From Candidatus Hydrogenedentota bacterium (lineage in GTDB: Bacteria > Hydrogenedentota > Hydrogenedentia > Hydrogenedentales > SLHB01), in contig DAIQLC010000002.1 of the NCBI GenBank assembly GCA_036789645.1, positions 22,398 through 86,397 on the forward strand: a stretch of DNA of 64,000 bases, in the 5' to 3' direction. How positions within the stretch are numbered: the first letter of the stretch is position 1; each line of letters starts with the position of its first letter. A program made the translations under genes and the position numbers. This document shows, piece after piece, positions 4,012 to 57,073 of the stretch. The notes beneath the pieces were generated by a model. That model did no database searches. It was not told the origin of the DNA and was given only the letters and a program-made list of their open reading frames with translations.

Positions 4012-4896
4012 ATGCGCTTTGCACAGATTTCGGCCCTGGTCACGGGGCTGGCGCTGGTCCTGGGGAGCCCGGGCGCGTCCGGCGCGGAGGCGCCGTTCGG
4101 CTGGCAGGTGGGCCCGACCGCGTGGACCTTTAACCGCTTTACGCTCTTTGAAGCCATCGACAAGACCGCGTCGGTTGAGCTTGGGTACATTGAGGCGTTC
4201 GAAGGACAACGGGTTCGTCCCGATGCGGACCTGAAACTCCATGCCGCGTTGTCCGATGAGGCGATTCAGGCGCTCCGCGCCAAGCTGGACGCGTGCCGGG
4301 TCAAGATGCCGGGGATTTACATTCATACGATTCCCGGAGAGGAAGCGGCCTGCCGCCAGACGTTCGAGTTCGCCCGCAAACTGGGCGTGCAATATATCGT
4401 TTCGGAGCCCGCGCCCGAATCCCTGGATGTGATCGAACGCTGCTGCGATGAATTCGGCATCAACGTGGCCATCCACAACCATCCGGAAGGCAAGTCGCGG
4501 TACTGGAGTCCGGAGGAGGCCCTGAAGGTATGCGAGGGCCGCGGCCCCCGTATTGGCGTGTGCGCGGACACCGGTCACTGGCTGCGTTCGGGACTGGACC
4601 CGAGCGAGTCCGTCCGGAAACTCGGCAAACGCCTGCTGACCCTGCATTTGAAGGATTTGGACCGGGCCGCGCCCGACGGAACCGACCGGCCATGGGGGCA
4701 AGGCTGCGGCGAACTCGACCAGGTGCTGCGGACCATCCGCGAACTTGGGCTCACGCCGGCCCTGTTTGGCATCGAATACGAATCGAATTGGGAGAATAAT
4801 CTGCCGCACGTCGTGGAATGCGCGGCGTGGTTCAAGAAGACGGTAGGCGCCCTCGCCGCCGGGGAAGCGCAACAGGCGGATTCGGGGCAGCAATAA
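4012..4896 (+). CDS. Exported sugar phosphate isomerase/epimerase (xylose-isomerase-like TIM barrel); candidate 3-keto-glycoside eliminase/lyase.
   Basis: ATG at 4012 lies 2 nt after the stop of the upstream dehydrogenase. Signal peptide MRFAQISALVTGLALVLGSPGASGA. AP-endonuclease 2/xylose-isomerase-like barrel signatures (INVAIHNHPE, ADTGHW, LHLKD). The longer track ORF 3550..4896 is an out-of-frame artefact overlapping the previous gene. Confidence 0.8.
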   Translation: MRFAQISALVTGLALVLGSPGASGAEAPFGWQVGPTAWTFNRFTLFEAIDKTASVELGYIEAFEGQRVRPDADLKLHAALSDEAIQALRAKLDACRVKMPGIYIHTIPGEEAACRQTFEFARKLGVQYIVSEPAPESLDVIERCCDEFGINVAIHNHPEGKSRYWSPEEALKVCEGRGPRIGVCADTGHWLRSGLDPSESVRKLGKRLLTLHLKDLDRAAPDGTDRPWGQGCGELDQVLRTIRELGLTPALFGIEYESNWENNLPHVVECAAWFKKTVGALAAGEAQQADSGQQ

Positions 4897-4927
4897 CACG
4901 CCGGTCGCGGCGCGGCACGCGTCCGGA

Positions 4928-7243
4928 TCAGTTCGCGGTGAAGGTGTATAGGCACGCGCCGGCGGGGGGCAGGCTTGCCTCAAGCGGCGCGGCGCCGTCG
5001 AACGGCCCCATTGCCCAAACCCCCTCCTCGTCGATGCGCGCGAGCATGCACGGGGCGGGGAGGGGATAGGTCTCGCGGGGCAGCGCGAGCGAAAGCGTCT
5101 GAGGCTCGTCGGTCACGTTCGCGAGGACGATGGCCACGCTGCCGTCGGCGGCCTGCCATGCACTCGCCATGACGCGCGGACACGCTTTCCGGTACTGTTT
5201 CAGAGCGTCCTGTTGCCCCGCGTAGATGGACAGGCGGGAGATGTCGATTTCCTCCTCGGGGAGTCCCAGGTCTGGCGGGCGCAGCATCGTTCCGTGGAGG
5301 AGATAACCGAGCCCCTGCTGGCGGACCTTCGCCAGACGGGTCAGGTACGCGAGCTCGGCGGGGCGCTCTTCGAAATGAGCGGGGAGGAAATTGGCGATCG
5401 TGGGCTGCTGTCCCCAGACGAACGCGCGGGCATGTTCCAGGCGGAACTGCTGCGAGAATTTCGTGTCGAGCAATTCAAGGGGGTTCTCCGGCGCGAACTC
5501 GGCGGGCCACAGTTCGTCGTAGGGGGGCATGGTGAGCGAAGAATAATTCCCGAAGAAGATGGCGTAGCCGTGATAGACCGCATGGAAGAAGGGGATGGGG
5601 TCCCAGACGCCCGGCTGGGCGTAGCGTTCCATGCTGACCTGGAGGCTGAGCATCAGGTCGAGATACGGCAGCCAGGCCTCCCCGCAGCCTTCGCCCGCGA
5701 GGACGACGTTCGCCTGCCCGGCGGCATCCGGTTGCGCGTCGCAGCGGTTGCGGATGTCCTCCTGCAGGTTGCGGAACCCGTCGATCCAGTACGTACCGCC
5801 CCCGATGGGATGACCGTGGGCCGGGTCGTAGCAGGGCAGGCTGGCGCAGGCCTGATCCATATAGATGGCGCCGACGCCGAGGCCGGTCACGGCCTGTTCC
5901 GCAAGTCCGGCGTAGGTATTGCGCCAGAATGACGTGCCCATGCACATGGCGGCGCAGGGCGCGGGTTTGAACGTGTTGTAGGTTTCGGGATGCACCTTGC
6001 CGTCGGGTCCTTTGACCGCGAATCGCTCGGCGCCTTCCGCGGCCCAGCTTTCCGTGGTCATGCCCCAGAGCCGCTGGTTCATGTAGACCATCGCGTGGAT
6101 CCCGGCTTCCCGGGCAGCATGAACGGCGTCACGAAACGGTTCGGCGCCTTCGCGGGGCGGGAGGTACTCCGGGAATCCGATGTCGTAGGGGCAGCCGTGC
6201 CACCAGTGCCAGAAGACGCTCACGGGCAGTCCGGTCCGCTCCTGAAGCGCGCGGGCCGGGGTGAGCACCTGGCCGGAGCGGCCGCGGTTCCATACCCAGA
6301 GCGCGGTCTCGACGGCCCAGTCTTCCACACGGCCGGTTTTGAGGCGGGCTTCCCGGGCCCAGGGTTGCTGGAGGGCCCAGACGCGGTATCGCTCGGCCGC
6401 CGTGAACCAGTCACCCTCGAAGGTGCCGAGCGCAACCCGGTATGCCGGTTCGTAGCGGTTCTGCCCGGCCGAGCCCCCCTGGGGCAGGTGCACAACCTCG
6501 AGCCCCGCACGGTTTTCGGCGCCTCCAAACACACAGAAGCGCTTCGCGAACGCCGCCGGGTCGTCCGAACTGATGAAGAGGCCCGGGCCGTCTTCTCGAT
6601 ACAGGGCAATGCATTGCAGTGAGAGCACTCCGGGATATTCCCACTCCATGCGGCCGGGCTTTTCAGGGCGGGAAAGAAACCGGCGCGGCTCTTCAGCGAG
6701 CTGTCCCATCCAGATCGGTGCGGCGAGCCGTTCGTTTTCCTGGGGAGCGATCCCCGGAATCCGAGGGAACCGAAGCGAGGCAAGCGGCAGATTGGCCGTG
6801 TTCTCGACCGCAATGCGCCAATGGGCGGTGGAGACATCCGGGTCGAGCGAGACCGTCGCGACCACCTGCAAATCCGGGGCTTCCGCCACGCCGAAATCGC
6901 GCCACGCGAGTTTCAGGGCGCCGTGGTGGTCGTCCAGAAACGCGTACGTGAAGGACTGGGCGCTGCCGGGCGCGATCTGGGTGACGGGGCAGGGCGGCAG
7001 CATGTGGAGAGTCCAGAGGTCGCCCATGGCCGCGGCCTCGACGAAGGCGTGCCCGTTCATTCTGTCGGTGAATTCCGCCAGGCGTCCGGAATCCGGGTCA
7101 AAGGCGACACGGAGCCCGGCGTTTTCCAGTACGGGCAAGGCTTCGGGGAGTGCGGCCCGGGATGGCGCAGCCGCAGCCAGAATCGCGAGGATGAAGAACG
7201 CGGCGCATAGGGTTTTGAACGGTTCAGGCTGGCGATAGGTCAT
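4928..7243 (-). CDS. Uncharacterised secreted glycoside-hydrolase-like protein (~770 aa).
   Basis: ATG at 7243 (MTYRQPEP...) with RBS aaggaga upstream. Signal peptide FFILAILAAAAPSRA. Trp-rich catalytic-looking core (VFWHWWHGCPYD, AIYMDQACA). No family recognisable by eye. Confidence 0.6.
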   Translation of the reverse strand: MTYRQPEPFKTLCAAFFILAILAAAAPSRAALPEALPVLENAGLRVAFDPDSGRLAEFTDRMNGHAFVEAAAMGDLWTLHMLPPCPVTQIAPGSAQSFTYAFLDDHHGALKLAWRDFGVAEAPDLQVVATVSLDPDVSTAHWRIAVENTANLPLASLRFPRIPGIAPQENERLAAPIWMGQLAEEPRRFLSRPEKPGRMEWEYPGVLSLQCIALYREDGPGLFISSDDPAAFAKRFCVFGGAENRAGLEVVHLPQGGSAGQNRYEPAYRVALGTFEGDWFTAAERYRVWALQQPWAREARLKTGRVEDWAVETALWVWNRGRSGQVLTPARALQERTGLPVSVFWHWWHGCPYDIGFPEYLPPREGAEPFRDAVHAAREAGIHAMVYMNQRLWGMTTESWAAEGAERFAVKGPDGKVHPETYNTFKPAPCAAMCMGTSFWRNTYAGLAEQAVTGLGVGAIYMDQACASLPCYDPAHGHPIGGGTYWIDGFRNLQEDIRNRCDAQPDAAGQANVVLAGEGCGEAWLPYLDLMLSLQVSMERYAQPGVWDPIPFFHAVYHGYAIFFGNYSSLTMPPYDELWPAEFAPENPLELLDTKFSQQFRLEHARAFVWGQQPTIANFLPAHFEERPAELAYLTRLAKVRQQGLGYLLHGTMLRPPDLGLPEEEIDISRLSIYAGQQDALKQYRKACPRVMASAWQAADGSVAIVLANVTDEPQTLSLALPRETYPLPAPCMLARIDEEGVWAMGPFDGAAPLEASLPPAGACLYTFTAN

Positions 7244-7437
7244 TCGGGATAGTCTCCTTGACGTTTCGGAAGAGGCAAAGTCGGAGTCTAGCAGATGTCG
7301 GAGGGGTAAGAAAGAGAGCGGCGTCAAGACTGCATCGCTGAGCCAGCGGCGGATTGTGGATCCACTTGCGGGGTCGGGATGGTATCATAAGGAATAGAGA
7401 AAAGGCCCATGGTCATTGGAGGCACAGGAGAATCGGT

Positions 7438-8655
7438 ATGACGAGGCCCCGCGCACGTCTCTTTCTCGCAGCACTGGCAGTCCTCCTGCTGATTCTGCCG
7501 TACTGTGCCACCGCGCCGAAACCGGAGACGGAACGGCCGCCAGAGAAGAAGGCCTTTTCCGGCGCTTCGTCGCGCATCGCGGGGATCCTGCGCGAGATGA
7601 GCGAGGTGCGCAAAGCCCAGCCTCCGGAGGGTGAAGCGAACGCGGATGCGGCGGCCTCCGGCCAGAGTGCCCTCGAACAGCGGTTGAACAAGCGCGCTCA
7701 GATTCTCGCCAAGGCGGTGAGCCGCGAGATGGGGGTGGACTTCGAGACCCGCGTGTACCAGATGTTCGGGGCCCCCGAGCCGATCAAAGACGAGACCGTT
7801 CTGCTGGAGGCCGTCGACGACAAGGGCAATGTTTCGGAAGTGCCGGTGGTGGTGCAAACGCGGCAATTGCGGTCGTTGACGGACCAAGCCGTCGCGGTGA
7901 AAGCGATGCGGCTGGCAGGCGAAGAGCAACTCGCCACGGAATTCTACAAGGAAGTGCCGGAACCCGTGCAGGCGGAGACGGCGAGTGCATTCCGCCGGGT
8001 GTATGAAGAGGTGGACGCACAGGCCATCGCGATGGAAGCGCGGCTGATTGTGATGCTGAAGGGCGGGGAGTGGGCGGCGCCCGAGAGCAAGAAGCCCGTG
8101 GCGAATGCGATCGCGGTGCGCGGACTCGATTTTGAGAAGGGGTTGAAGGAGAACTGGAACAAGACGTACGACGACACCATGTACCTTGTGCTGGAGACGG
8201 CTACGGGCCCGGCGGAAGTGTATGAATACCGCATGACGACGGAGTCGAGCAGCGAGAGCAAGGGCGTGGGCCGCCTGGAATCGAAACAGGTGACGTATGT
8301 GCGCGGCAAGCACCGCGGCACGGATCCCGGCTATCGTCTGCAGGGCAACGCGGCGCCCGGCACGCGGGTCGGGATCAAGGGCGCACAACAAATCACCGGG
8401 GCCAACATCCATTCCGCCTATTCGAAGCGGCCCATAAACAGTGAAACCCCGCTCCAGCCGAACGTGTCGCTGGGGTGCCAGGTGGTGGCGGCGAGCAAAC
8501 AGGATTTCGAGAAGTCGCTGGTCCAGACGCTCGACCAGCGGGGCGTCAAACAGTTCCTCTACACCATCGTGGACGATGCGGAACTCGCCGAGCTCAACAA
8601 GATCCTGGAGAGCCAGGGCGTGAAATCCGTGCTGGCGAGCGCCGTGTCGCGCTGA
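7438..8655 (+). CDS. Hypothetical exported protein with a C-terminal YkuD (L,D-transpeptidase)-like His...Cys motif.
   Basis: ATG at 7438 after ggagaa. Signal peptide LFLAALAVLLLILPYCATA. C-terminal segment ANIHSAYSKRP...SLGCQVV resembles the L,D-transpeptidase catalytic H/C arrangement (weak). Confidence 0.5.
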   Translation: MTRPRARLFLAALAVLLLILPYCATAPKPETERPPEKKAFSGASSRIAGILREMSEVRKAQPPEGEANADAAASGQSALEQRLNKRAQILAKAVSREMGVDFETRVYQMFGAPEPIKDETVLLEAVDDKGNVSEVPVVVQTRQLRSLTDQAVAVKAMRLAGEEQLATEFYKEVPEPVQAETASAFRRVYEEVDAQAIAMEARLIVMLKGGEWAAPESKKPVANAIAVRGLDFEKGLKENWNKTYDDTMYLVLETATGPAEVYEYRMTTESSSESKGVGRLESKQVTYVRGKHRGTDPGYRLQGNAAPGTRVGIKGAQQITGANIHSAYSKRPINSETPLQPNVSLGCQVVAASKQDFEKSLVQTLDQRGVKQFLYTIVDDAELAELNKILESQGVKSVLASAVSR

Positions 8656-8759
8656 TGCGGCGCGCCGGGCTCGCGTGGGCTTCGAAAACACCGTTCGTGT
8701 GGGACTGGCGCTCTTGAGGTCGGTCTCGAGGAGTCTTTCATGCACGCGAGTCTCGCCCG

Positions 8760-10058
8760 CTATTCCCCGGCGGGCGGCATCCCCTGGAGGTTGGCAAAGA
8801 CCACGTTGCGGATGTTCTGTTCACCGGATTCGAAGGTGATGGGCGGTCCCTCGGCGTCATATTTGATGACGTTGGAGACGATGGATTCGGACAGCGAACC
8901 GGCAATGAGCACCGTGTGCTGCGACCGGCTCATGATGTTGCTGATGACGATGCGGCAGGTATCGCCCAGGGGGGTAACGCCGCCCCAGCGCGGATTGCTG
9001 TCGCCGATTTTGATCGCGGCGCGGCCGGGCTTCGCGGAACCCGACGTGTCGATGAGTCCGTCGAGAAGTACGTCGTGTATCCGGAGTCCGCTGGCATTGA
9101 GGAAGCGCACGATATGATGGCCGCCCGCGCAATACCCGCGGATGTTTCGAATGGTGATGTTGCGAATGTCGTCCAGGCCGTCTCCGCGGTTGATGGCGGC
9201 GCTGACCATGGTCGATTCGGTGGAACCGGCGGTGCTGTCGGTCCTGAGAATGTTCGTGAGCGCCAGGAGATCGTCGCCGGTGTATCCGGTGAGGTTTTCG
9301 ATGAGAATGTTGTGGCATCCCTGGCGCAGATCGAGTCCGTCCTGGTTGAGGACGGTTTCCGTCTTGCCGTCAATGGTCCTGTGCCCCGTGGAGGCGAAGT
9401 CGATATCGCGGATTTTTCCGTAGGCGCAGCGCTCGAGTGAAATGGCCCAGGCGTGGGAGTCGACGAGCCGGAGGTTTTCGAGGCTGAACTGCTCGACACA
9501 GGCCATGAGGATGCCGATGTTGCGCCAATCGCCGGTCTGGCTTTCGTTCTGGACGCCGGCGTCGGTGCCGTAGGTGCGTTCGCCGAGGGTCTTTGCGCTG
9601 TCGCCCGTGGCGCGGGGGTGGTCGGCGCCTTCGAGCACCGCGGTGCCAATGCCGCGAATGGACACGTTCGAGATCGGGGCGATTTCCGTGATGCCCAGGC
9701 CGCAGTTCGCGCTGCGGATGATGTTGTCGCGACAGCGATCCGAGAGTTTGATACGGCAGTTCTCGAGATCGAGGGTGGTTCCGCTCTGGACGAGGATCGC
9801 CGAATCGAGCAGCCAGATGTCCCGGGGACCGTCCGCGGCGTGATTGGTTTTCGGGATGACAACGCGCCGGCCGGAGGCGGCTCCGGCCGCGATGGCCTGG
9901 TTGATGCGCTCGGAGTCCGCCCCCTGAAATGCGTTCGGGGTGACGGGCTCGCACGTCGACGATGCGGCATCCTCCGCCACGGCCGGCTGTCCGGCCAGGG
10001 AACAGAGCAGGACCGCCAGAAGGATTGCGGATAGCGGTGTACGGCGTGAAAGTAACAT
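8760..10058 (-). CDS. Right-handed beta-helix glycoside hydrolase, GH28 / pectate-lyase-superfamily-like, secreted.
   Basis: GH28-like motifs NQDGLDL, TGDDLLAL and NITIRNIRG. Signal peptide MLLSRRTPLSAILLAVLLCSLAG. ATG at 10058; an alternative ATG exists at 10085. Confidence 0.75.
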   Translation of the reverse strand: MLLSRRTPLSAILLAVLLCSLAGQPAVAEDAASSTCEPVTPNAFQGADSERINQAIAAGAASGRRVVIPKTNHAADGPRDIWLLDSAILVQSGTTLDLENCRIKLSDRCRDNIIRSANCGLGITEIAPISNVSIRGIGTAVLEGADHPRATGDSAKTLGERTYGTDAGVQNESQTGDWRNIGILMACVEQFSLENLRLVDSHAWAISLERCAYGKIRDIDFASTGHRTIDGKTETVLNQDGLDLRQGCHNILIENLTGYTGDDLLALTNILRTDSTAGSTESTMVSAAINRGDGLDDIRNITIRNIRGYCAGGHHIVRFLNASGLRIHDVLLDGLIDTSGSAKPGRAAIKIGDSNPRWGGVTPLGDTCRIVISNIMSRSQHTVLIAGSLSESIVSNVIKYDAEGPPITFESGEQNIRNVVFANLQGMPPAGE

Positions 10059-10150
10059 GACACAATCCCCGTGGTCAGTGGTCATCCGGCCGCCTCACGG
10101 GCGCTCCGGTTCGTTATCCCTCGGAGTATAGAAGCGCGCGCCGTCCCGCA

Positions 10151-13100
10151 TCAACGCGCGCCCGGCATCGCGTGGGACTCGGGCGGTTGCAGCGTGATGC
10201 GTGCGCGCACCGGGGCCATGAGCGGTCCCGCGCAGCCGAAGGCGACGGCGTGTTCGCCTTCAGGCAGCTCGAAGGTCTCGACCGGCGCGTCGGAGAGCGC
10301 CGGGCCCTCCAGCGGGAGTCCGTACTGCCGCAAGGGTTCGCCGGGCCAGAGGATGACGTATTGGCCCTCGCTGAGGGTTCCCGGGCACTCGATCCGGCGG
10401 CCGTCGATCTCGACCCAGGGATTCGCCAGGGTGCGGGGATCGAGAACCGGCAGGGCCTTGATGTCGTCGATGGCGCAGGACACGGACGTCTGGGCGGGCA
10501 GGCCGTTGTAGTAGAAGTTGATGCGGCGGACCTGCGCATAATCGATGGGATCCGGTTCCGGCCGGGCCAGTTGATGGTACCGCCAACCGGTGTAATTGTT
10601 GGCGATGTAGAAATCGGCGGCCCGGGCGCCGTCGAGCAACTGGAGTTTGAAGCTGCCGCCGTTGCCGTCGCCCCGCAACCAGAACCCAATGGCCCGGTGC
10701 TTCGAGAGGTCGAGCGGCGGTGTAAACGGCTTGCCGATGACGGTCCAGCCGGCGTCGGCGTCCAGGCTGCTTTGGGCCGAATACACGGCGTAGCTGGCGC
10801 CCTCCCGGGAACCGTCCGTGGAGAGTGCGAATTGCTGTGTGACGCCTTCGAGCGTCGAGCCGGCTTCTCCGTGCGCGATTGTGGTCACGCCCGCGGCGGC
10901 GCCGGGGAGATAGGGAGCGAGATCATCGAACGTCTCCAGGGTCACGGCATCGGGGGCGCTCCAGGACGGTCCGGGGGCGGTCCACGGTCCCGGCAGCGCA
11001 TGGATCTGAATGCCCACGCGGGCGGGGCCCACCGGTACGCGAACCCGCCATTGCGCGCTCTCCGGAACGGCCCCGTTTACCTCCTGCCAGGGCGTGTACA
11101 CGACGCGCTGAAACACTTCCTCGCCTTCGCGGCCCAGCAGGCGGTATTCGCGGCGGATATCGAGGAGTTTCGCGCGCTCCTCGGGCGATTTCTCGCCGGC
11201 GAGGGCCGGATCGATGCGCAACCGTTCGCGCATGTCGGCCGGAACGCGTCCCGAGAGGCGGAGCCGCTCATACCGGGAGATACAGTCAAGAATGTCGCCC
11301 GTGAACGGGTGTTTTCGCGCGGCATCGAGCGATACCTGGAACGACATCGACGAGTCGTACCCGATGGTGGCGCCGAGGACGTATTCGTACATGTCGAGGG
11401 TGCAGTTGGGGTCGTACCCGTAATACCAGCCGATGTCGAGCGGCATGGCGTTGCGTTTGAACGCATCCAGCCAGCCCGACCGCTCGTCGAGATAGCCTTT
11501 GAGATCGCCGTGGCCGTCGGCGGACGCGCTGCGGGCGAGAATGTGCCACGAATAATGGCTGAAGCTGCTGGCCTGAAGCAGAATGTCTTTTCGGGCGAGC
11601 TTGTCGAAGAAGGTCTTGTGGAGCTTGGCATTGTAATACCAGTGGTCGCCCTGGAGACGCTCGGAGCCGTCGAAGTAGATCATGTCGATGTCGCACGCAT
11701 TGGCTACACGGGCGAAATGGGTGGAGACCTCGTCGATGAGGGTGGTGTCCATATCGTACATGTGATACCCGTAGGCGCGCCGGATGTGCGTGATGGCCGC
11801 GCCCCGGGCGTGGGGCGCGGGAGCGGTGCCGAGATGGCCGCGCGTACAGCCTGCGAATCCCGTGGGGGCCTCCAGGCTGAGCGTCCGGTAGCGGAGAAGC
11901 TCGTTGTCGATCTGAATCACGGCGCCGTCGCCGGTGTACCCGCCGTCCTCCGCGGGAAAGCCCTCCGGCGGGGCGGGCGTTGGAACAAAGTCCGTCGTGT
12001 CGTCGATGTCGGCGGCGAGCTGGATGGACGGCCCCTTCACCAGCCTCGGATCGGGCACGGGGGTCAGGTAGGGGTCCGGGGGATAGATCGAGGCGCCGAG
12101 CATGTGGAACCCGACGTGAAATCCCGCATCCTTGAGGCGTTGCACGGTGTCGACAAGGGCATCGAGACCGCCGGGAAAACTGTCGGTGTTGACCTCGAAG
12201 TGGCCGGTGGCCCGCGTCCAGGAGTCCTGGAGAATGAGAATCATGTCGAATCCGCCGCGCCGTGCCATGGCGATGACGTCATCGGTCTGGGACGCATCGA
12301 ATCGGGTGATGAAGAGGTACGATCGTTTGATCCAGGGCGAGCGCTTGTTCCAGACGCCGTCGGGATGGGGACTGGGCAGGTTCGCGGCGATTTCGAACCG
12401 CTCCATGGTGTCGAGAAACTCCTGTTGCGAGCAGACGAGGAGGCCGAAGCGCGCGGGGAGGAGCCCGTGCCCGGCGAGGGTCTCGAGGTTGAGGGTCTGG
12501 GTCTTCGCGCACCAGAACAGGGAGTCCGGACGCTCAAAATCTTCGAGCAGGATGGCCTCCTGGTTTCCATCGCGCTCCACAATGGCCTCGATATGATCGA
12601 CCATGCACGACACCGATTCGCCGACGGGCAGACTGTTGTAGTAGATGCTGAGCGTGGCGACGTTGTCGTAGCGCAGGGTGTCGAGAGCAGGCGTGTCGAT
12701 CGTGACCTGCTGCCAGCCCTGGAAGGTGATCGGAATGTAGGTGTCGCGGTAGCCGCCGCGCCCGTCATTGAGCTGGATCTTGATCTGTTGGCCTTTGGCA
12801 TCGCCGTGAACCCAGGCGCGGATGGCGGTGCAGCCGGTGAGGTCGAGGGGCCGGGGGAGGTCATGGCCCACAACGCTCCAGCCGCCCGCCTCGGCGCCGG
12901 CCGTGGCGGTGAACCGGGCCGCCGTGGAGCCGACCCTGGCCTCGTCCGTGGGCAGGAACTCGTGGGAACACCCGGCCTTATCGGCGTCGCTGCGGCCGAT
13001 GACTTGCGTGTAGGCGTGCACGTTGATCTCGGCCGCGGACAGGGCGGCCACATGGGTGGGCGTGCTGGCGGCGTTCAACGTCGACATGATCTCGGCGCCT

Positions 13101-13501
13101 TCGGGCACGGGTAGCGAAAGGAGCTTCAGGCGGGTCGCGCCGGGCGCTTCCAGGCGGGTGACTTCGAATACCAGAAACCCAGCGCCGCGCGTGACGGCCA
13201 TTTCGCAGAGCGCGCCGCCCGGGAAGTGCGCCGTAAGGTGTTCGTTCTGCGCCGTCACGGATTCCGGCAGGAGCAGGCCGCTTTCCGTGTCCAGGCGGAC
13301 GAGCGGCTGGGCGGCAGCGGGCCACGACGCGCCGGGCTCTGCCAGTTCCAGCGTTGCGTAGCCTCTGGCGTCAATCACGAGACGCGCGGTGCCCAGGTCG
13401 AATGTGGCGATCGCCGGTTCTTGCGCCGGAGCGCCCTGATCGAGAAAAAGTGCGAGCATTGCGGTTGCCAGATAAAGAAAGGAGCGCGTTGCCGAAGGCA
13501 T
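10151..13501 (-). CDS. Large secreted multi-domain putative glycoside hydrolase (1116 aa): melibiase-like TIM barrel flanked by two homologous CBM-like beta-sandwich domains.
   Basis: ATG at 13501 with RBS aagggggac. Signal peptide MPSATRSFLYLATAMLALFL. Barrel-like core (GFDMILILQDSW, GFHVGFHMLGASIYPPD). Two internally homologous ~110-aa domains, centred roughly at 12566..12889 and 10454..10789. Confidence 0.75.
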   Translation of the reverse strand: MPSATRSFLYLATAMLALFLDQGAPAQEPAIATFDLGTARLVIDARGYATLELAEPGASWPAAAQPLVRLDTESGLLLPESVTAQNEHLTAHFPGGALCEMAVTRGAGFLVFEVTRLEAPGATRLKLLSLPVPEGAEIMSTLNAASTPTHVAALSAAEINVHAYTQVIGRSDADKAGCSHEFLPTDEARVGSTAARFTATAGAEAGGWSVVGHDLPRPLDLTGCTAIRAWVHGDAKGQQIKIQLNDGRGGYRDTYIPITFQGWQQVTIDTPALDTLRYDNVATLSIYYNSLPVGESVSCMVDHIEAIVERDGNQEAILLEDFERPDSLFWCAKTQTLNLETLAGHGLLPARFGLLVCSQQEFLDTMERFEIAANLPSPHPDGVWNKRSPWIKRSYLFITRFDASQTDDVIAMARRGGFDMILILQDSWTRATGHFEVNTDSFPGGLDALVDTVQRLKDAGFHVGFHMLGASIYPPDPYLTPVPDPRLVKGPSIQLAADIDDTTDFVPTPAPPEGFPAEDGGYTGDGAVIQIDNELLRYRTLSLEAPTGFAGCTRGHLGTAPAPHARGAAITHIRRAYGYHMYDMDTTLIDEVSTHFARVANACDIDMIYFDGSERLQGDHWYYNAKLHKTFFDKLARKDILLQASSFSHYSWHILARSASADGHGDLKGYLDERSGWLDAFKRNAMPLDIGWYYGYDPNCTLDMYEYVLGATIGYDSSMSFQVSLDAARKHPFTGDILDCISRYERLRLSGRVPADMRERLRIDPALAGEKSPEERAKLLDIRREYRLLGREGEEVFQRVVYTPWQEVNGAVPESAQWRVRVPVGPARVGIQIHALPGPWTAPGPSWSAPDAVTLETFDDLAPYLPGAAAGVTTIAHGEAGSTLEGVTQQFALSTDGSREGASYAVYSAQSSLDADAGWTVIGKPFTPPLDLSKHRAIGFWLRGDGNGGSFKLQLLDGARAADFYIANNYTGWRYHQLARPEPDPIDYAQVRRINFYYNGLPAQTSVSCAIDDIKALPVLDPRTLANPWVEIDGRRIECPGTLSEGQYVILWPGEPLRQYGLPLEGPALSDAPVETFELPEGEHAVAFGCAGPLMAPVRARITLQPPESHAMPGAR
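10454..10789 (-). repeat. Intragenic CBM-like domain copy 2 of the 1116-aa protein.
   Basis: DAGWTVIGKPFTPPLDLSKHRAIGFWLRGDGNGGSFKLQLLDG...SVSCAIDDIKA is homologous to copy 1. Confidence 0.6.
12566..12889 (-). repeat. Intragenic CBM-like domain copy 1.
   Basis: AGGWSVVGHDLPRPLDLTGCTAIRAWVHGDAKGQQIKIQLNDG...SVSCMVDHIEA. Confidence 0.6.
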
Positions 13502-13599
13502 TTCAGTCCCCCTTACATGGTTGCCAATTTCCGTGATACGATACGGAATTATCCGCGTAAATAATTGAGGCATAACACGATACGTATCTTGTCAAGAGA

Positions 13600-15924
13600 T
13601 TATTTAAGTATTGTGTCCCCGAAACTCAGGTCGAGGAGCCAGCGGCAGTTGATTACTTTTTCGACGAGATCGAGCGGGAGGTAGAAGTACTGGCACGAGG
13701 GTTCGAACCCGATGCGGGAGTCTTCGCGGGTCAGGGTGAAGAGCTGTCGGGCGAGGTCTATTTCGGATTCGAGGGCCCGGCGGAGTTCGGTCAGGTGCCG
13801 ATCGCGTTGTTCGGGAGCGAGGGCTTCGCCGGAACCGGCGAGGGCGTCGCGCGCCATGACAAAGCGCGCCTGGTTGGCAACCGACTGGAAGTGGATGGCG
13901 GCGGCGCGGGCCAGACGGAGGTCGCCGCCGGCTTCGGCGCGGAGAGGCTCGGGCGTCTTCTGTAATGCGGCTTCGAGTTCGGTGATGCCGGGCTGCCAGC
14001 CCTGTGCGACCTTCTCGAACTGCGCGGCGAACACCTCCGGCGGGTAGGGCCCGCGCCAGCCGTTCAGGTCATCGTAGGGAATGCCCCACATGGTCGCGCT
14101 GTAGCCGGTTGGGGCGGAGAAGAGGGGATTGGCGGGGCCGCATTGAACGGGCGAGGTATACACCACGCTGATGTGAAACGGGTATTCGCGAAACGCGTCG
14201 CTCATGAGGGTCCAGGCCTTGCGCGCGCCGGGCGCGGCATCGGATCCGAACCGTTCGCGGGCAATGTCATCCAGTACGGCATCGGCGCTGGGGGCGGTTG
14301 TCTGGCTCAAGCGGTGCGCGAGCTGGAAATTGGGGGAAGGGAACCCGCCCATGGTCCAGCCGATGAGCATGGCGTCGAGCCGGGCCGCGTCGCGCAGATT
14401 GATGCAGTGTTCGGCGATCAAATCCATGACGGGCAGGTAGGGGACGGTAGCGATTTCGCACGTGTTGTTGAATTGGATTTCCGTGCCGGTTTTCAGGCCG
14501 GTTTCGCGGGCGGTTTTCCAGTGGGCCTGCGAACGCGGGCCGGGACCGACCGCGGAGATCGAGTATTCGCCGACGGTCGATTGGATGCCGCCCCGCTCAA
14601 TGGGCAGATGCCATTCGCTGACGGACATGAGGTAAACGGTCTTGGGGAGGCGGGCGATGATGTCGGGAGCGTCGCCGTGGCCGCGCCAGCCCCAGTCGGA
14701 GATCAGGACGGCGGCGTCCGGATTGCCGCGGTGCACGCCCTCTTCGATGACCTGAACCACCTCGGCGAGAATGTCGCCGTCGGTGCGGTCTTTGCATCGC
14801 TCGCAGGCTGTCCAGGCGCCGTGCGACGCGCAGTTGGTCAGGTTTTCAGACGCCGTGATGGCATAGACCCCGGCCAGTTCCGGCACCTCGCGGAAGATAT
14901 GGGTCAGGGCGCCCCCCATCCAGGCGCGCACGGCGGAGTGGGAGGTGCACAGGGCGGTCAGGTCCCCTTCCTGAACGCCGGCAACCTCGGGATGACTGGC
15001 AAAGAAGGTGGTGGGCATGGCGCGCGGCTCGTTGATGTAGAGGTAGACGCCGATGCCGAAAGTCCTGGCGCGCTGGACCAGTTCCCGGAGGTTGGCGAGC
15101 CGTCTCGCATGGTTTTCGCCGAATTCCGGAAACGCGTCCCCGCCCGGCGCCAGGTCCCTCAACAGGCCTTGCAGCCACACGCCGTTGATGCCGGCCTGCG
15201 ACAAGCGCGCCAGCAATCCGTCGGGGTAGGGATTCAGCTCGGGGGTCAGCAGCGGATCGCCGTAGACGGCCACGTACGAATAGACCAGCCGCCGCGGGTC
15301 GCTCAGCGCGGCCGCCGGGGGCGGCGGCGTGTAGCCGGGGGGCACGTCCTTGATCTGCCGTACAAAATCGAAGCGCGGCTCGGCGGGAAGCGCAATCTCG
15401 TCGCCAAACACCTCGTGAACCACGGCGCGGATCTCCGCGGCTCTGGCGCGTGCGGCGTCATCCGGTTTCTGGTAACGGACGGGTGGACAGGCCGGTTTGA
15501 GGCGGCCGAGCTTGATCCACAAGAAGTCTTCCTCGCGCAGCGTAAATGCCAGGCGCTCGGGAGTCATCTCGACGAGTTGCAGCAGTTGCTCGTAGGGCAG
15601 GAGATGCCAGTTTCTGCGGATAAGGGTGGCGTACCCGCGTTTCTTCAAGTCGGGAGAGACCGCGGGTTCCGCGGGCAGTCCCATCGATACGGCCATCGCC
15701 GTGATGTCCTCGACCGGCGCTCCGAGCACCTCGGCGAGTTTTGCCGGCTCTACGGCGTTCCAGTTGCGCCACACGAAGGCATGCGCGGTATCGGGGAAGT
15801 GGGCGAACGTTACCGGCGGGGGCGCGTCGCCGTGCGGAAGCGCCGCGTCATCCGTCGCGGCCCAGGCCGCACAGCAGAGGAATGTGGTCAACGCACCCAT
15901 GACACAGGAGAAAGGACTGGACAT
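13600..15924 (-). CDS. Uncharacterised secreted glycoside-hydrolase-like protein (774 aa).
   Basis: ATG at 15924 (MSSPFSCVMGALTTFLCCAAWA, signal peptide). No match to the neighbouring large proteins by eye. The antisense 595-aa ORF 14143..15930 was rejected. Confidence 0.7.
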   Translation of the reverse strand: MSSPFSCVMGALTTFLCCAAWAATDDAALPHGDAPPPVTFAHFPDTAHAFVWRNWNAVEPAKLAEVLGAPVEDITAMAVSMGLPAEPAVSPDLKKRGYATLIRRNWHLLPYEQLLQLVEMTPERLAFTLREEDFLWIKLGRLKPACPPVRYQKPDDAARARAAEIRAVVHEVFGDEIALPAEPRFDFVRQIKDVPPGYTPPPPAAALSDPRRLVYSYVAVYGDPLLTPELNPYPDGLLARLSQAGINGVWLQGLLRDLAPGGDAFPEFGENHARRLANLRELVQRARTFGIGVYLYINEPRAMPTTFFASHPEVAGVQEGDLTALCTSHSAVRAWMGGALTHIFREVPELAGVYAITASENLTNCASHGAWTACERCKDRTDGDILAEVVQVIEEGVHRGNPDAAVLISDWGWRGHGDAPDIIARLPKTVYLMSVSEWHLPIERGGIQSTVGEYSISAVGPGPRSQAHWKTARETGLKTGTEIQFNNTCEIATVPYLPVMDLIAEHCINLRDAARLDAMLIGWTMGGFPSPNFQLAHRLSQTTAPSADAVLDDIARERFGSDAAPGARKAWTLMSDAFREYPFHISVVYTSPVQCGPANPLFSAPTGYSATMWGIPYDDLNGWRGPYPPEVFAAQFEKVAQGWQPGITELEAALQKTPEPLRAEAGGDLRLARAAAIHFQSVANQARFVMARDALAGSGEALAPEQRDRHLTELRRALESEIDLARQLFTLTREDSRIGFEPSCQYFYLPLDLVEKVINCRWLLDLSFGDTILK

Positions 15925-16113
15925 GTTTAGAGCATCCTTGCGCCCTGCCGGCCCGGCGTGCGCGGGCACGGCCTGGCGGCGTTCCGGTTGACGACGAGCG
16001 GGCGGCGTTCCCTGTCGCCCGCAGGCAATATGCAGGAACCCGGCGGGACGAATCAATTCCGGCCGCCGGGGACATCCGAAATACTGGAATGCCCCGGTGG
16101 GTGTTCGCGGGCG

Positions 16114-18717
16114 CTACCGCCTCATCAGCCAGGCCTCGGACACGAGGGTGCCCCAGCCGCCGGAATTGCGCCACTGCTCGCGCGACACGCGATCGCCGCG
16201 CGCCACGTCGGCGCCCCGTTCGAACCGGACCACCAGGTCGCCGTCCCGGGTGAGCTCCTGAGGGATGTCCCAGGTGAAGAAATCGCTCATTTTGAAGGGG
16301 AGTTCCACGTTCTCCGCGAGCACGCGGTCGTCCGCATAGATGGTCTGGGCCTTCTGATTCATGCGTCCGGCATACCGCTCCTGATACCAGGGCCGTACGA
16401 AGGTGAATCGAATGCGGTACGCGGCGGCCGGGTCGAGGTTGCGGTAGTGCAGGGTCACGCCCTGGTCTTCGTCCTGGGTGAAGTGCATGGACGCCTGGCT
16501 GGGACGGTTTCCTTCATCGAGCATTTCGTTCAAGTACGGCTGGCCGTGGTCGTACGGGTATCCGAAGACCACATGAGGCGCGTTGTTTCCGGTGCCCAGA
16601 TTGTCGTAAAAGCCGCCTTCGCCGGCATCCTCGTAATTGGTGATCATGGCGAGCATCTCGCGGCGTTCGTCGCCGGACGCGGCGAGGGCGCGTTCAAGCT
16701 GGCGTTTGACCCAGCCCAGCCCGATGTAATCGTGTTCGAGGTTGAACATGCCTTCACTGCGCATGCCAAACCGGGTGTTGCTGATCTCTCCCAGCGCGAA
16801 GGCTTCCTGCCGGAGGGACGCCATGGTCCCGGTTTCGGCAAGGTCGTCGAACCATGCGAGGGCGGTGGTCAGCGCATCGTCCGGCGCCGGCTGCGCGGTG
16901 TCGCGGAGATGGGTCTCGAGCCGCTGCTGCAGCGTTTTCTGCTGGCGCACCCGCTCCTGCGTGTAGCGGTCGACGGCGGCCTTCTGCATGTACATGTGCC
17001 AGACATAATCCTGCTGCCGGCGCCAGGCGGGCATGAGCTCGCCGGCCTGTTTCATGAGGTCGTAGCAGCGTTCCACGCTCTCCTTCCGGTCGATGGGGGT
17101 TCCGGGAATCTCTTCCATCACGTCTTCCAGGAGAAAGAGGGCCTCGGTCATCAACGGAGCGGCTTCAGGACCGAACCATGTGCGGCAATATTCGGCCGTG
17201 ACTTCTTCGGGGGTCTGCCGCGGCGCCCAGAGCAGGCGCTGCCAGAGCCATTGATTGAAATGGTCGTGGTGGCCGCTGCTGTGCGTGACGTCGCCGACGC
17301 CGTAGTGCATAAGATCGTTGAACACGCGGTGGTAGAAGCGGGGCCAGGCGTACCAGGTCTGGCGGGCATAGACTTTTGTGAGCGCCAGATCGGGGCGGCG
17401 TTCGTAGATCTCGTGGCTCCAGTGCGGGGGGAGATCGCCGTTGCGATCCGCCCGGGGGTACATCTGGATATACGCATGCTGCGCGTATTTCCAGTGGGTG
17501 ATCTCGTTGAAGTACACGAGCTGATGCCGCGGAGGCAGTTCGCGCAGGATTTCGCGCGGATACAGGGCGAAGGGGCCATACCCGGGGTAGCGGAACAGGT
17601 CCATGCGGTGGGTCTGCCGGTGCCCGGGCTGCCAGGTGGTCGCGTCGGAGCCTGGACCGTATCCGAAGGCCCACAACCACTCGCGCGGCTCCGACTGGAG
17701 GTAATCGAATATGGCGCGGTCGTCCGCGTCGTCAAATTTCTGGTTTACGATGAAGATGCGCGAGTTGGGGTGGTATTTGCGGACGATTTCCGCCATTTCG
17801 GCCACGGTCTCGATGAAGATCCTGCCATAGGGATCGCACCGGTCGCATTCACAGCCGCCGCCGTCACCGCCCTTGAACCGCACGAGGTCGAAGAAGGGGC
17901 AGGACCGGAACTGTTCTTCACACTGTTCGAGCATGCGTGTCCGCGCCTCGGGAACGGACAAACAGACAAAACCCTCGCGTCCGATGGACTCGGCGGCTTC
18001 CCAGGCCTTGGGAACGGCGCTGTGGGCGATGTTGGCATCGCCGTCCGTCAGCGTCATCAGACCGTAGGACACGATAAAGTCGTACATGGGTCCGGGAGCG
18101 GTCTCAAACGTGTTGGCGCCGGCCAGCGCGTAATTCAGGATAACGCGCTGGGTCTCTTCGGGGGTCCACGGGCGGTTTTTCCCCAGGCTGAGTGCGGTGC
18201 CGCTCTGGCCATACTGCGTGCCGCGGATTTCGAAAGCGGGCGCGGTCCGCACGTGAAGCGCGTCGGGTATGCGGATCGCCCCGTCATCAAAGGTTGCCTG
18301 GCGGAGAATCTCGCCGGCGGCGTAGAGACAGCCGCGATCGTCAATGCCCGCGGCCAGCAGTGTGCCGCCCGGGCCCGATGGAAGCAAGTGGAGTACAAAC
18401 CCCTCCGGTCCCGGGGCGAGGGACGTCAATGGAGGGATGCCCTCAGCCTCCATGGCGTCGCGCAAGGCCGCATGGTGCTCAGGGCGGCCCAGAAGGATGG
18501 TGAGCGTGGCGGTGCCGGAGGCTGCGGTGTTCCCGATCTGCACGGGCGCCATGCCCGGCTCGGCCAGGCGTTCCTGAAGCAGGCGCGCGACGCGCTGCTC
18601 GACGGGGCCGGCCGTCTCCCCCGTCTGGATGGCCACGTCGCGGTACGCCGCGCCCCAGGCGACCGAACCGATAAGAAGACCAACAGCGATGATGGGAATA
18701 ATCCGGCAGCATCTCAT
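16114..18717 (-). CDS. Uncharacterised secreted glycoside-hydrolase-like protein (867 aa).
   Basis: ATG at 18717 (MRCCRIIPIIAVGLLIGSVAWGAAY, signal peptide); alternative ATG at 18747. Motifs CECDRCDPYG and HDHFNQWLWQRLLW; family not recognised. Confidence 0.7.
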   Translation of the reverse strand: MRCCRIIPIIAVGLLIGSVAWGAAYRDVAIQTGETAGPVEQRVARLLQERLAEPGMAPVQIGNTAASGTATLTILLGRPEHHAALRDAMEAEGIPPLTSLAPGPEGFVLHLLPSGPGGTLLAAGIDDRGCLYAAGEILRQATFDDGAIRIPDALHVRTAPAFEIRGTQYGQSGTALSLGKNRPWTPEETQRVILNYALAGANTFETAPGPMYDFIVSYGLMTLTDGDANIAHSAVPKAWEAAESIGREGFVCLSVPEARTRMLEQCEEQFRSCPFFDLVRFKGGDGGGCECDRCDPYGRIFIETVAEMAEIVRKYHPNSRIFIVNQKFDDADDRAIFDYLQSEPREWLWAFGYGPGSDATTWQPGHRQTHRMDLFRYPGYGPFALYPREILRELPPRHQLVYFNEITHWKYAQHAYIQMYPRADRNGDLPPHWSHEIYERRPDLALTKVYARQTWYAWPRFYHRVFNDLMHYGVGDVTHSSGHHDHFNQWLWQRLLWAPRQTPEEVTAEYCRTWFGPEAAPLMTEALFLLEDVMEEIPGTPIDRKESVERCYDLMKQAGELMPAWRRQQDYVWHMYMQKAAVDRYTQERVRQQKTLQQRLETHLRDTAQPAPDDALTTALAWFDDLAETGTMASLRQEAFALGEISNTRFGMRSEGMFNLEHDYIGLGWVKRQLERALAASGDERREMLAMITNYEDAGEGGFYDNLGTGNNAPHVVFGYPYDHGQPYLNEMLDEGNRPSQASMHFTQDEDQGVTLHYRNLDPAAAYRIRFTFVRPWYQERYAGRMNQKAQTIYADDRVLAENVELPFKMSDFFTWDIPQELTRDGDLVVRFERGADVARGDRVSREQWRNSGGWGTLVSEAWLMRR

Positions 18718-18841
18718 GCGAATCACACTCCCGTGTTTTCCCGGCATTCAGACGTGCCGGATAGCCGAATGGAACCGCCCAACGTGGTGAAGAGGAGAGA
18801 CTCGCGAGGGGAGTCGCACCTCAGACAACCATATCACAATC

Positions 18842-18886
18842 GGGGACACGCAGTCGCGCCGATGACGGCGGCCCCTGCGTGTCCCC
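18842..18886 (-). terminator. Stem-loop with 12-bp perfect arms (ggggacacgcag ... ctgcgtgtcccc) downstream of the minus-strand efflux operon.
   Basis: Perfect inverted repeat with a 21-nt loop, 23 nt after the stop of the 18909..19103 gene; a weakly U-rich tail follows on the minus strand. Confidence 0.4.
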
Positions 18887-18908
18887 GAGTTCGAACGGTC
18901 TCTGTGGG

Positions 18909-23571: not shown

Positions 23572-23692
23572 ATCACCTCTCGATTAACGTGTAGCGTGCA
23601 CCGCGCCTCGGGCGTTGCCGCGACGGCATGCCGCGAGTTCGCGGCCCTTGCGCGCAGCCGAAGCAGGCCGTCGTGCTGCCCGATTCAGCGGG

Positions 23693-24433
23693 CTATTCTT
23701 CCCGGCGGGCGCCCTGGCCACCCCCGCCGGCTTGGCGGCCGCGGAACGTGGTGGCCTGTTTCCAGGTTTCAAGCTGTTCATTGGACAGGATTTGCGCCAG
23801 ATCGGTGTCAAGTTTGGTCTTGAGGGCCGTCATTTTTTCGCGCAGCGCGGCGAAATCCTGCTGTTCGCCAGCGCCCGGAGTCCACAATTTGGCCTGCTCC
23901 AGGCTGTAGGCAAAGACGAGATCAAAGGCCTTGGCCTGTTTGTCTTCCAGTTTGAAGCCCGCCAGCACGTGAACCATCCGGTCGAGGGAATTGTTGAATC
24001 CACCGAGCTGGTCCACCGCCTTCTTGGCCTGCTCTTCGGTCAGGAAGGCGGCCAGGGCGGCGGCAAACTTGTCGCGCTCGGACTTGCGGATCTCCTCAAA
24101 GGCCGTGCGGATTGCACCGCGCGCGCCTTCGCGGTCACCGCCTTCCGCCCGCATTTCTTCGCGCTTCTTGTTGACGGCTTCGCCGTACGCGGTCTGGGCG
24201 TCGGTATAGGCTTTCACGAGTTTTCCGGTGGCTTCCTCGGCAAGCTCCAGCTTGCCCGCCACGTGTTTGGCCTCGAGGGTCCAGGCCGCTTTCAGCTGTT
24301 CGGGGGTCATGCGCGCGGCCCGGCCGGGGCCTTGCGCGTGGGCTGTCGCTGTCGCGAACAGGAAGACAACCAACAGAATACCGGCCAACGAAGCAATACC
24401 ACGTCCTGCGGCAGCAAGATTCCGCTTTCTCAT
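23693..24433 (-). CDS. Spy/CpxP/ZraP-family periplasmic protein (LTxxQ motif).
   Basis: Signal peptide, then an all-helical sequence with MTPEQLKAAW and LTEEQAKKA repeats. First gene of the minus-strand efflux operon. Confidence 0.7.
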   Translation of the reverse strand: MRKRNLAAAGRGIASLAGILLVVFLFATATAHAQGPGRAARMTPEQLKAAWTLEAKHVAGKLELAEEATGKLVKAYTDAQTAYGEAVNKKREEMRAEGGDREGARGAIRTAFEEIRKSERDKFAAALAAFLTEEQAKKAVDQLGGFNNSLDRMVHVLAGFKLEDKQAKAFDLVFAYSLEQAKLWTPGAGEQQDFAALREKMTALKTKLDTDLAQILSNEQLETWKQATTFRGRQAGGGGQGARREE

Positions 24434-25231
24434 CGTCGTGACCCTTTCTTTCCGGCGCCGCGCACCCCTCGCGCATGCCGTTGCATGTATTCGCCAATGA
24501 CCCGATACTCGACGTGGGGGGAGGCCGAACTGCCTGGGGAGAATACTCCACCTCCCGTACCCTACTCTGCAGCACTTTTCACAGGGGCTAATGATGCCTC
24601 ATACGGGCGGGTCAGGTCAACGCCGAGGCCCAATGGCACGTCAGAAAAAGGGCACCCGCGGGGGGTGACTGACCGAGGTGCGTCCATGGCAGGTTGTAAT
24701 GCACTGTATATACAAGGGTTAGCTCCTCCGTGCCACTTCGATTTGTTGCCGTGTGCCATGCGTGCGGCCTGTGGGCAGGAGGCTCCTCATTTTACAGTCC
24801 AGGCCCGCGTGGGGGCGTCCAGCTGGGATTTCGTGCGTGGTGAATTGTTGACCCGGCAGCGCGTTCCGCCGCATGCCGTGCCCTCCGGCTGAACCACGGT
24901 GATGCAGTTCTTTCTCAGAATCATCCTCCCAAAGCCCCCGGATCATCTGCGAGCGTGCTACAATATGAGTGCGGTCTGGTTTATGTGACTCAACTGAATT
25001 CCGAATGGTGGTGATCCGTGCGTCCGACAAGCCTTCCGACGAGGGGTTCTCCAGTAGCATAGTAATCTATCGCCAACCTTTTCAGACCGCGTGCTGACGT
25101 GTCCGGCAGATGCGAAAGGCATAAAGAGGCGGCGTGAGGGCGGGCTGCGTGTGCCAGTGTGCACAAAAGAATCTCTCGCCAGAACGACGGGTCGGAACTC
25201 GCGTCTCCCCCAAAACCAAGGAGAGTGTGTC

Positions 25232-25522
25232 ATGGAGTCGATAGTGCCGTTGATTATCCAGTTGGTGAGTGGCGCCGTGGGCGGGAACATTGCGGGTTCG
25301 CTGATGAAGAACTCGTCTTTGGGCGTCGCCCTGAACTCGATTGCCGGGATTGTCGGGGGCGGTGTTGGCGGACAGATACTCCAGGCCCTGCTGGGGGCGG
25401 GCGCCAGCGGTGGCGGCATGGATATCGGCAGCATCATCAGCAGTATTGCCGGCGGTGGTGTCGGCGGCGGGCTCTTGATGGCGATCATCGGCATTATCAA
25501 GAAGGCAGCCGCTCAGAAGTAA
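25232..25522 (+). CDS. GlsB/YeaQ/YmgE family stress-response membrane protein (transglycosylase-associated protein family).
   Basis: ATG at 25232 after caaggagag. Gly-rich amphipathic TM repeats (AVGGNIAGSLM, GIVGGGVGGQIL, GGGVGGGLLMAIIGII). Confidence 0.75.
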   Translation: MESIVPLIIQLVSGAVGGNIAGSLMKNSSLGVALNSIAGIVGGGVGGQILQALLGAGASGGGMDIGSIISSIAGGGVGGGLLMAIIGIIKKAAAQK

Positions 25523-25699
25523 CGTCGTGTCCGGCAGGAGCAGGGTGCTGGCAGGTGTCAGCGCGCCATGATTCCCGTTGTTGAGCCGGTATCCGGTTTC
25601 GGTTGTAGTGCGGCCGACGGCGCGTTTCGTGCGAATCGGTCGCATCTGCACTTATGGCAGGCCGGTCTTTGATCTGTGGGTAAACGAAAGGAGAACAAG

Positions 25700-36102: not shown

Positions 36103-36129
36103 TGTCCGCGCAGGCCAGATGCCGCCCGG

Positions 36130-57061: not shown

Positions 57062-57073
57062 AAGGTATCACCG

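Follow-up and report, generated by a model that had tools for sequence, protein, structure and literature searches.

The stretch of DNA analyzed here (hereafter, the window) comprises 64,000 nucleotides (nt) from a Candidatus Hydrogenedentota bacterium (contig DAIQLC010000002.1, positions 22,398 to 86,397). The gene under study lies on its minus strand at 10151..13501 and encodes a putative glycosidase of 1116 amino acids (aa), the coding sequence being complete with its stop codon. Calling of open reading frames (ORFs) returned a longer frame (10151..13573, minus strand) of 1140 aa counted from the first ATG, whose G+C content at third codon positions (GC3) of 0.82 is typical for real genes in this window of 64% GC. 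We place the start at the ATG at 13501, because a Shine-Dalgarno-like AAGGGGGA (13507..13514, minus strand) stands 5 nt upstream of it, the two closest relatives (L006 and L007) keep this ribosome-binding site, the ATG, and the CC that follows it, and the homologues P0003, P0004, P0005, and P0008 are all exactly 1116 aa long. A 100% identical protein in public assemblies (P0001; Logan, a cluster with 110 member sequences) was called as 1140 aa from the upstream ATG, and its start was probably set 24 codons too far upstream. A scan for promoters and terminators gave no result above chance. The AT-rich leader upstream of the gene contains a direct repeat, CGTATCGT, at 13537..13545 and 13576..13584 (39 nt apart), which adjoins a TTGACA box and occurs in three copies in the window, where chance predicts 0.4; the closest relative (88% identical) has kept the TTGACA box but not the repeat.

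The protein begins with a predicted Sec-type signal peptide (aa 1-26; 13424..13501; this and all features of the protein are on the minus strand). By inspection, the N-terminus MPSATRSFLYLATAMLALFLDQGAPA, followed by QEP, has an n-h-c layout and an A-x-A site with predicted cleavage between APA and QEP, and shows neither a lipobox nor a twin-arginine motif. An AlphaFold2 model built on 38 homologues was confident overall (predicted local distance difference test, pLDDT, 88.2; predicted template modeling score, pTM, 0.79) and drew this segment as a helix (residues 6-23) with low confidence (pLDDT ~50). A sequence-only reading of this DNA, made by a model from the letters and translated ORFs, had likewise taken the protein to be secreted.

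Seven parts follow one another in the model. After the signal peptide comes an N-terminal beta-sandwich (aa 28-172; 12986..13420) that is all-beta with pLDDT mostly 83-96 and is common to most members of the superfamily (hereafter, Nt). It is followed by the first of two beta-jelly-rolls resembling carbohydrate-binding modules (CBMs), a CBM11/CIA30-like copy at aa 175-322 (12536..12979), and then by a (beta/alpha)8 barrel (aa 330-782; 11156..12514), which forms the superfamily core and is the putative catalytic domain. A small beta-sandwich (aa 783-845; 10967..11155), the second, CBM11-like jelly-roll (aa 850-1020; 10442..10954; supported by Pfam CBM_11, Foldseek, and repeat homology), and a C-terminal beta-sandwich (aa 1022-1112; 10166..10438) complete the chain, the two sandwiches being defined by the model and by superfamily architectures. 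The barrel is interrupted between strand b3 and helix a3 by a beta-rich insertion of 117 aa (aa 470-586; 11744..12094), which holds the invariant E534, R554, and H564 and the near-invariant C552. The (beta/alpha)8-like region that the sequence-only reading had placed between two repeats is a real barrel in the model, and the four peptides quoted in that reading were all located in the translation (AGGWSVVGHDL... from aa 205, DAGWTVIGKPF... from aa 916, ILILQDSW at aa 421-428, and GFHVGFHMLGAS at aa 460-471). The three further beta-sandwiches and the insertion into the barrel go beyond what it described.

The homology of the two jelly-rolls, also proposed by eye, lies far beyond chance. BLASTP aligned copies 1 and 2 with 50/133 identities (38%, E 5e-27), searches with a family hidden Markov model (HMM) of one copy recovered the other in both directions (E 3e-34 and 5e-33), and both copies are conserved in 38 homologues. 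They do share a conserved C-terminal end, the exact form of which is SVSC-x-[VI]-D (SVSCMVD and SVSCAID) and not the SVSC-x-D originally quoted. In Pfam, the whole protein matched CBM_11 at E 1.3e-6 (29.0 bits versus a cut-off of 27), a match driven by copy 2. Copy 1 alone scored 17.7 bits against CBM_11, under the 27-bit gathering threshold, and 21.6 bits against CIA30 (PF08547), below the 24-bit gathering threshold. When isolated domain sequences were searched (n = 19, E ≤ 0.01), the matches were to CBM_11 (n = 10), FlaA (n = 4), and CIA30 (n = 4). By Foldseek, copy 2 resembles the CBM11 structures 1v0a and 6r3m (TM scores 0.63-0.65), CBM11 being the nearest family to the module in structure, and its beta-jelly-roll is superimposable on CtCBM11; a profile of the repeats searched against the PDB retrieved FlaA sheath proteins alone, sub-threshold, and did not retrieve CBM11. 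From these mixed HMM, Foldseek, and PDB-profile results, the repeats are therefore described as jelly-rolls that resemble CBM11, belong to the chain-binding type B group, and are borderline members of the family itself. The likeness to the CBM11 module of Clostridium thermocellum Lic26A-Cel5E (1v0a) is one of jelly-roll fold, the HMM scores and the PDB profile search marking the difference, and the turret protein of Haloferax tailed virus 1 ('prokaryotic polysaccharide deacetylase', 8qpg), a component of an archaeal virus particle, has only the jelly-roll module in common with the protein.

The number of jelly-rolls per family architecture is 0, 1, 2, or more, which is the behavior of an accessory module. 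The most common layout in the superfamily is Nt-core-(one jelly-roll)-Ct (~900-960 aa); the clade of the window protein has an additional jelly-roll before the barrel, and other clades have none or tandem C-terminal copies. No paralogue of either the core or the repeat was found elsewhere within the window.

A family profile searched against 1.84 billion cluster representatives (clustered at 50% identity) matched 2114 proteins at E ≤ 1e-3 and 775 at E ≤ 1e-30, with profile positions ~325-755 as the common core. The core family is found mostly in Hydrogenedentota, Planctomycetota, and Verrucomicrobiota, and homologues with at least 47% identity occur in these phyla and in Armatimonadota and Sumerlaeota; a cultured carrier, Aquisphaera insulae (JC669), is among the Planctomycetota. 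Among relatives, Ca. Hydrogenedentes UBA2224 stands closest to the window (88%) and is syntenic with it. More than 100 homologues carry the source names 'hypothetical protein' or 'CIA30 family protein', and the latter annotation is misleading for these proteins.

The barrel is structurally similar to members of glycoside hydrolase (GH) families GH27 and GH36 (clan GH-D). The best Foldseek E-values were those of GH101 endo-alpha-N-acetylgalactosaminidases (3e-14), the GH36 A-antigen galactosaminidase FpGalNase (5e-13), and GH129 (6e-11). Structural comparison thus settles the type of fold but does not single out a family. At the sequence level, a first family profile (A1) searched against the PDB gave a sub-threshold GH36 match (E 0.29). 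A second profile (A2), composed of the window core and 19 relatives at 26-39% identity, retrieved 33 PDB sequences at E ≤ 10, 23 of them GH36/GH27, and its best match was the GH36 galactosaminidase of Flavonifractor plautii (FpGalNase; E 4.6e-4). When aligned by hhalign to human alpha-galactosidase A (GLA; template sequence confirmed against 1r46), the family scored 70.6% probability with the insertion kept and 89.8% (E 1.8e-6) with the insertion deleted. The latter alignment runs through strand 4 and pairs DIDMIYFDGSE with GVDLLKFDGCY, placing D611 on D170. The same procedure with the Melibiase-domain protein encoded in the window (50905..54513) gave 24% probability, over strands 2-3 only.

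Several features are shared with the GH36 and GH27 enzymes that we compared (F. plautii GalNase, 9awt/8x1b; G. stearothermophilus AgaA; T. maritima GalA; human alpha-Gal A). These are a (beta/alpha)8 barrel between N- and C-terminal beta-sandwiches, a strand 2-3 segment of the form ...W...G.(Y/W)..n...FP.G...l...iH..Glk.G.h, an Asp that ends strand 4 in I-D-x-(L/I)-x-(F/Y)-D-G, and an Arg/Asp pair around strand 6. The protein differs from them in its 8-14% identity, in matching none of the Melibiase, Melibiase_2, and Glyco_hydro_36 HMMs, and in having the conserved 117-aa insertion after strand 3 and the two CBM11-like modules. The likeness to GH101 (EngBF, SpGH101) and GH129 (ZgGH129) consists of the Foldseek matches and a long beta-sandwich/barrel layout, but the global TM score is ~0.25, identity is 8-9%, and there is neither an HMM match nor a sequence-level signal; moreover, those families use an Asp/Glu pair, whereas the target clade has Gln at strand 5. 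For GH31 (E. coli/Klebsiella YicI, FjDex31A, Agd31B), the Glyco_hydro_31 HMM was without a match, the PDB profile search gave GH27/36 instead, and M-I-Y-F-D-G-S-E of the target agrees with the signature [GFY]-[LIVMF]-W-x-D-M-[NSA]-E at 4 of the 7 specified positions, short of the full motif.

Conservation was counted over 122 distant representatives of the family (26-60% identity). E534, R554, and D611 are present in all 122, H564 and W692 in 121, W652 in 119, and Y395, H466, Y609, R657, and D662 in 118 each. The candidate nucleophile, D611 (codon 11669..11671, checked), closes strand b4 within the motif DIDMIYFDGSE. The GH27 nucleophile is D170 in GLA; as D611 is invariant and aligned to D170 by hhalign, it is, on this sequence comparison, the positional equivalent of that residue. 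In the AlphaFold2 secondary structure, R657 lies in strand 6 and D662 (codon 11516..11518), the candidate general acid/base, in the loop just after it. The Arg and acid/base Asp of clan GH-D are located at strand 6, and because R657 and D662 are placed in the same way, D611/D662 is our preferred catalytic pair. R657 and D662 would correspond to the R-x3-D motif of GH27, with a spacing of x4 here versus x3 in GH27/GH36. The alternative acid/base candidate is E534 (codon 11900..11902), the invariant Glu of the insertion domain. At the strand-5 position (Q643), Gln is found in 86/122 representatives and Glu in 23/122, with Gln invariant in the clade of the window protein; at the strand-7 position (D689), the counts are 63 Asp, 32 Glu, and 19 Gln. 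A GH13-type triad was considered and rejected because these two positions vary.

Taken together, we favor, with moderate confidence, a Sec-exported enzyme with duplicated CBM11-like modules as the gene product, a retaining glycosidase that resembles clan GH-D and belongs to a large uncharacterized family. Domain layout, fold, kinship of the repeats, size of the family, and residue conservation are observations; catalysis, the roles given to residues, glycan binding, and the substrate are deduced. That confidence applies to the enzyme class and the nucleophile jointly, and is far lower for any specific substrate. The family would be, on balance, a distant offshoot of the alpha-galactosidase superfamily (clan GH-D, with GH27, GH31, and GH36), to which GH101 and GH129 would be structural cousins. 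In the proposed mechanism, an axially linked (alpha-D or beta-L) glycoside would be cleaved by retaining double displacement, in which D611, at the C-terminal end of barrel strand 4, would attack the anomeric carbon, and D662, in the loop after strand 6, would serve with its partner R657 as general acid/base, a role for which E534 of the inserted domain is the alternative. The 117-aa insertion is predicted to sit over the catalytic face, like domain B of GH13 and insert 1 of GH31, and to supply E534, R554, and H564 as substrate-contacting residues. The jelly-rolls are predicted accessory binders of glycan chains that would hold the enzyme on a polymeric substrate, one of them having apparently been duplicated into the N-terminal half in the clade of the window protein.

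The genomic context of the gene and its homologues was profiled for indications of the substrate. In the window, the gene stands in a co-directional run of putative glycosidase genes. Immediately upstream is a gene for an 818-aa protein (13600..16056, minus strand) with a signal-peptide-like start at an internal Met, for which neither Pfam nor NCBIfam gave a match, and PDB sequences gave none at E ≤ 1. Directly downstream is a gene for a 441-aa protein (8760..10085, minus strand) with a sub-threshold likeness to GH28, beta-helix proteins, and alpha-D-galacturonidase. The close relatives L004/L006 and L007 keep both genes next to the target, and in L009, whose contig ends there, a partial match to the 818-aa protein is found upstream of the target. 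The run also takes in an 877-aa protein (16114..18747, minus strand) that matches DUF4838 in part, and a DUF6259 protein (E 1e-110) whose tail is GH30C-like lies at 4928..7327 (minus strand); these two, both uncharacterized putative glycosidases, flank the cluster.

De novo clustering of neighbors across 74 loci yielded weak recurrences, i.e., GFO/IDH/MocA oxidoreductase (n = 16), sulfatase (n = 11), and GH123 (n = 6 loci, in three phyla). In metagenome-assembled genomes (MAGs) of Verrucomicrobiota (L055-L060, about 4800..18900 in locus coordinates), the homologue is part of an apparent operon with the order GH123, DUF4962 plus heparinase II/III C-domain, homologue, propeller protein (1270-1490 aa; F5/8C plus FG-GAP/lambda-carrageenase-like), and GFO/IDH/MocA oxidoreductase, with sulfatases and BD-FAE esterases divergently upstream; this locus seems to be directed at a polysaccharide that is both sulfated and acetylated. 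In the Hydrogenedentota locus L001, the homologue has GH20, GH123, and sialate-lyase-like genes nearby, and a distant family member lies between a sugar transporter and a CE4 deacetylase. Two other distant members have a different setting. P0236 (931 aa) ends a cluster for exopolysaccharide (EPS) biosynthesis (L086, 48..12796) that includes GT4, a flippase, epimerases, methyltransferases, two sulfotransferases, and a hexapeptide acetyltransferase, and P0233 overlaps a MatE/flippase-like gene. MAG 71 (Hydrogenedentota or Sumerlaeota) from microbial mats has been described as equipped for degrading sulfated polysaccharides (PMC10866078).

Action on a polymeric glycan, as the sequence-only reading had supposed, is plausible because of the modular CBM-like domains and the lyase-like, sulfatase, and GH123 neighbors in other phyla. 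The gene contexts, along with the fact that the nearest solved relatives are alpha-galactosaminidases and alpha-N-acetylgalactosaminidases, suggest as a best guess a complex, possibly sulfated polysaccharide that contains N-acetylhexosamine or hexosamine. We raise, tentatively and as a minority possibility, a more specific version in which the protein is a founding member of a new GH-D branch, the Glu/Arg/His triad of the insertion completes the active site, and the substrates are exopolysaccharides that are sulfated or made of alpha-linked amino sugars (Pel-like and galactosaminogalactan-like polymers, for instance, or the sulfated EPS of microbial mats). To our knowledge, activity on such exopolysaccharides is currently assigned to very few families.

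A number of observations weigh against a GH-D-like glycosidase. No Pfam or NCBIfam model matched aa 320-845 even at E ≤ 1 (the core of eight distant relatives is likewise without any Pfam match), and a phmmer search of the PDB with the whole protein had no match at E ≤ 10. The significant GH27/36 signal in sequence is confined to strands 2-3, the nucleophile could be aligned only once the insertion had been cut out by hand, and hhalign of the barrel's C-terminal half on its own gave no significant score against GLA (E 0.034). hhalign also set D672, not D662, on D231 of GLA, with low confidence. The Lys of the GH27/36 K-x-D motif is a Tyr here (Y609), and the galactose-binding motif DD-x-W is not conserved; the window protein has QDSW, of which the Trp alone is kept in the superfamily (W428, 105/122), Q425 and D426 being variable. 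We take the repeat relatives CIA30 and FlaA not to be lectins. As for the gene context, the neighbors in the window (the 818-aa, GH28-like, DUF6259, and DUF4838 proteins) recur solely in relatives with at least 75% identity, context is not conserved family-wide, and these neighbors therefore say little about function; in any case, genes for sulfatases and GFO oxidoreductases are common throughout these phyla.

Part of this bears on the choice of catalytic residues. An enzyme with the same fold and with D611 as nucleophile might use a Glu as acid/base in the style of GH13, GH101, and GH129, either E534 or the strand-5 residue (Q643 here), and we give this arrangement a small but real chance. 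E534 is more strictly conserved than D662 (122/122 vs 118/122), the top Foldseek matches GH101 and GH129 employ an Asp/Glu pair, and the Glu seen at the strand-5 position in 23/122 representatives would be 32 residues past D611, near the GH101 spacing. However, Gln occupies that position in 86/122 and throughout the clade of the window protein, which means that strand 5 cannot supply a catalytic residue throughout the family. D689, at the place of the strand-7 Asp in the GH13 triad, varies, and the matches at the sequence level were to GH27/GH36, not to GH13 or GH101.

The remaining alternatives concern the role of the protein as a whole. It may not degrade foreign glycans but trim or release the EPS of its own cell, as do PslG, PelA, Sph3, and Ega3; P0236 as the last gene of its biosynthesis cluster and the overlap of P0233 with a flippase-like gene fit this role, which we nevertheless regard as unlikely, as the window gene and its close relatives are found among putative glycosidases (DUF6259, DUF4838, GH28-like) and not glycosyltransferases, and GH123, GH20, sulfatases, and transporters give the loci in Verrucomicrobiota and Hydrogenedentota a catabolic character. 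A non-hydrolytic use of the GH-D-like scaffold, as a transglycosylase or an alpha-glycan lyase, has precedents in GH31, which includes both activities and whose Agd31B is among the fold matches, and Y-F-D-G-S-E is partly GH31-like (cf. W-x-D-M-[NSA]-E); given that nothing specific favors it and that hydrolysis is by far the most common activity in these clans, we consider it very improbable. Least credence of all is given to a catalytically dead binding or structural protein that retains a glycosidase fold. It would explain the lack of a family HMM match, the absence of the classical GH27/36 sugar-binding motifs, and the kinship of the repeats to the non-enzymatic CIA30 and FlaA, but the carboxylates, Arg, His, and Trp at the ends of the barrel strands are strictly invariant across the distant representatives, the signature of a maintained active site.

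We thus retain the retaining, GH-D-like glycosidase as the preferred interpretation. The sequence-only reading had been unable to name a family, and rightly so, given that the barrel is without a Pfam, NCBIfam, or PDB sequence match. It had added that the protein would be an ordinary, if large, carbohydrate-active enzyme (CAZyme) should the repeats match a known CBM family and the barrel a characterized GH family; the repeats turned out to be CBM11-like, and the barrel fell into no characterized family in the libraries compared. The literature on GH101/GH129, clan GH-D, Naumoff's GHL families, and Hydrogenedentes CAZymes yielded no described family with these features. Judged against Pfam, NCBIfam, and the PDB, with CAZy/dbCAN outside the comparison, this is probably a new GH family. 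It is an incremental find of a kind that is regularly made and involves no new biological principle. Were an activity assigned, thousands of genes would gain an annotation in one step, CAZy would probably gain a GH family, and a missing turnover step for complex, possibly sulfated or amino-sugar-containing polysaccharides could come to light. Hydrogenedentota, Planctomycetota, and Verrucomicrobiota are glycan-degrading specialists of sediments, mats, digesters, and freshwater, and the candidates D611, D662, and E534 together with the homologue of the cultured A. insulae JC669 make the question directly testable.

Large CAZyme-like genes are packed unusually densely in the window. They include a gene for a 1551-aa protein (44973..49628, plus strand) whose sole Pfam match is a fragment of GH20 domain 2, the above-mentioned Melibiase gene (minus strand), encoding a 1202-aa NPCBM plus Melibiase (GH-D type) protein, a GH2 gene (32416..35265), and a GH43/32-like gene (31317..32258). 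Two intervals, 23572..25675 (2.1 kb) and 35266..36129 (0.86 kb), contain no high-GC3 ORF of at least 80 aa in the gene map, in which RNA and low-GC3 genes were not looked for. At 37483..39798 (minus strand), a 771-aa fusion joins an ATP-binding cassette (ABC) sugar permease (BPD_transp_2) to a periplasmic binding-protein domain (Peripla_BP_4), and it adjoins a second permease and a double ABC ATPase. A V/A-type ATPase operon with I, E, A, B, and D subunits is located at 55073..62167 (plus strand).

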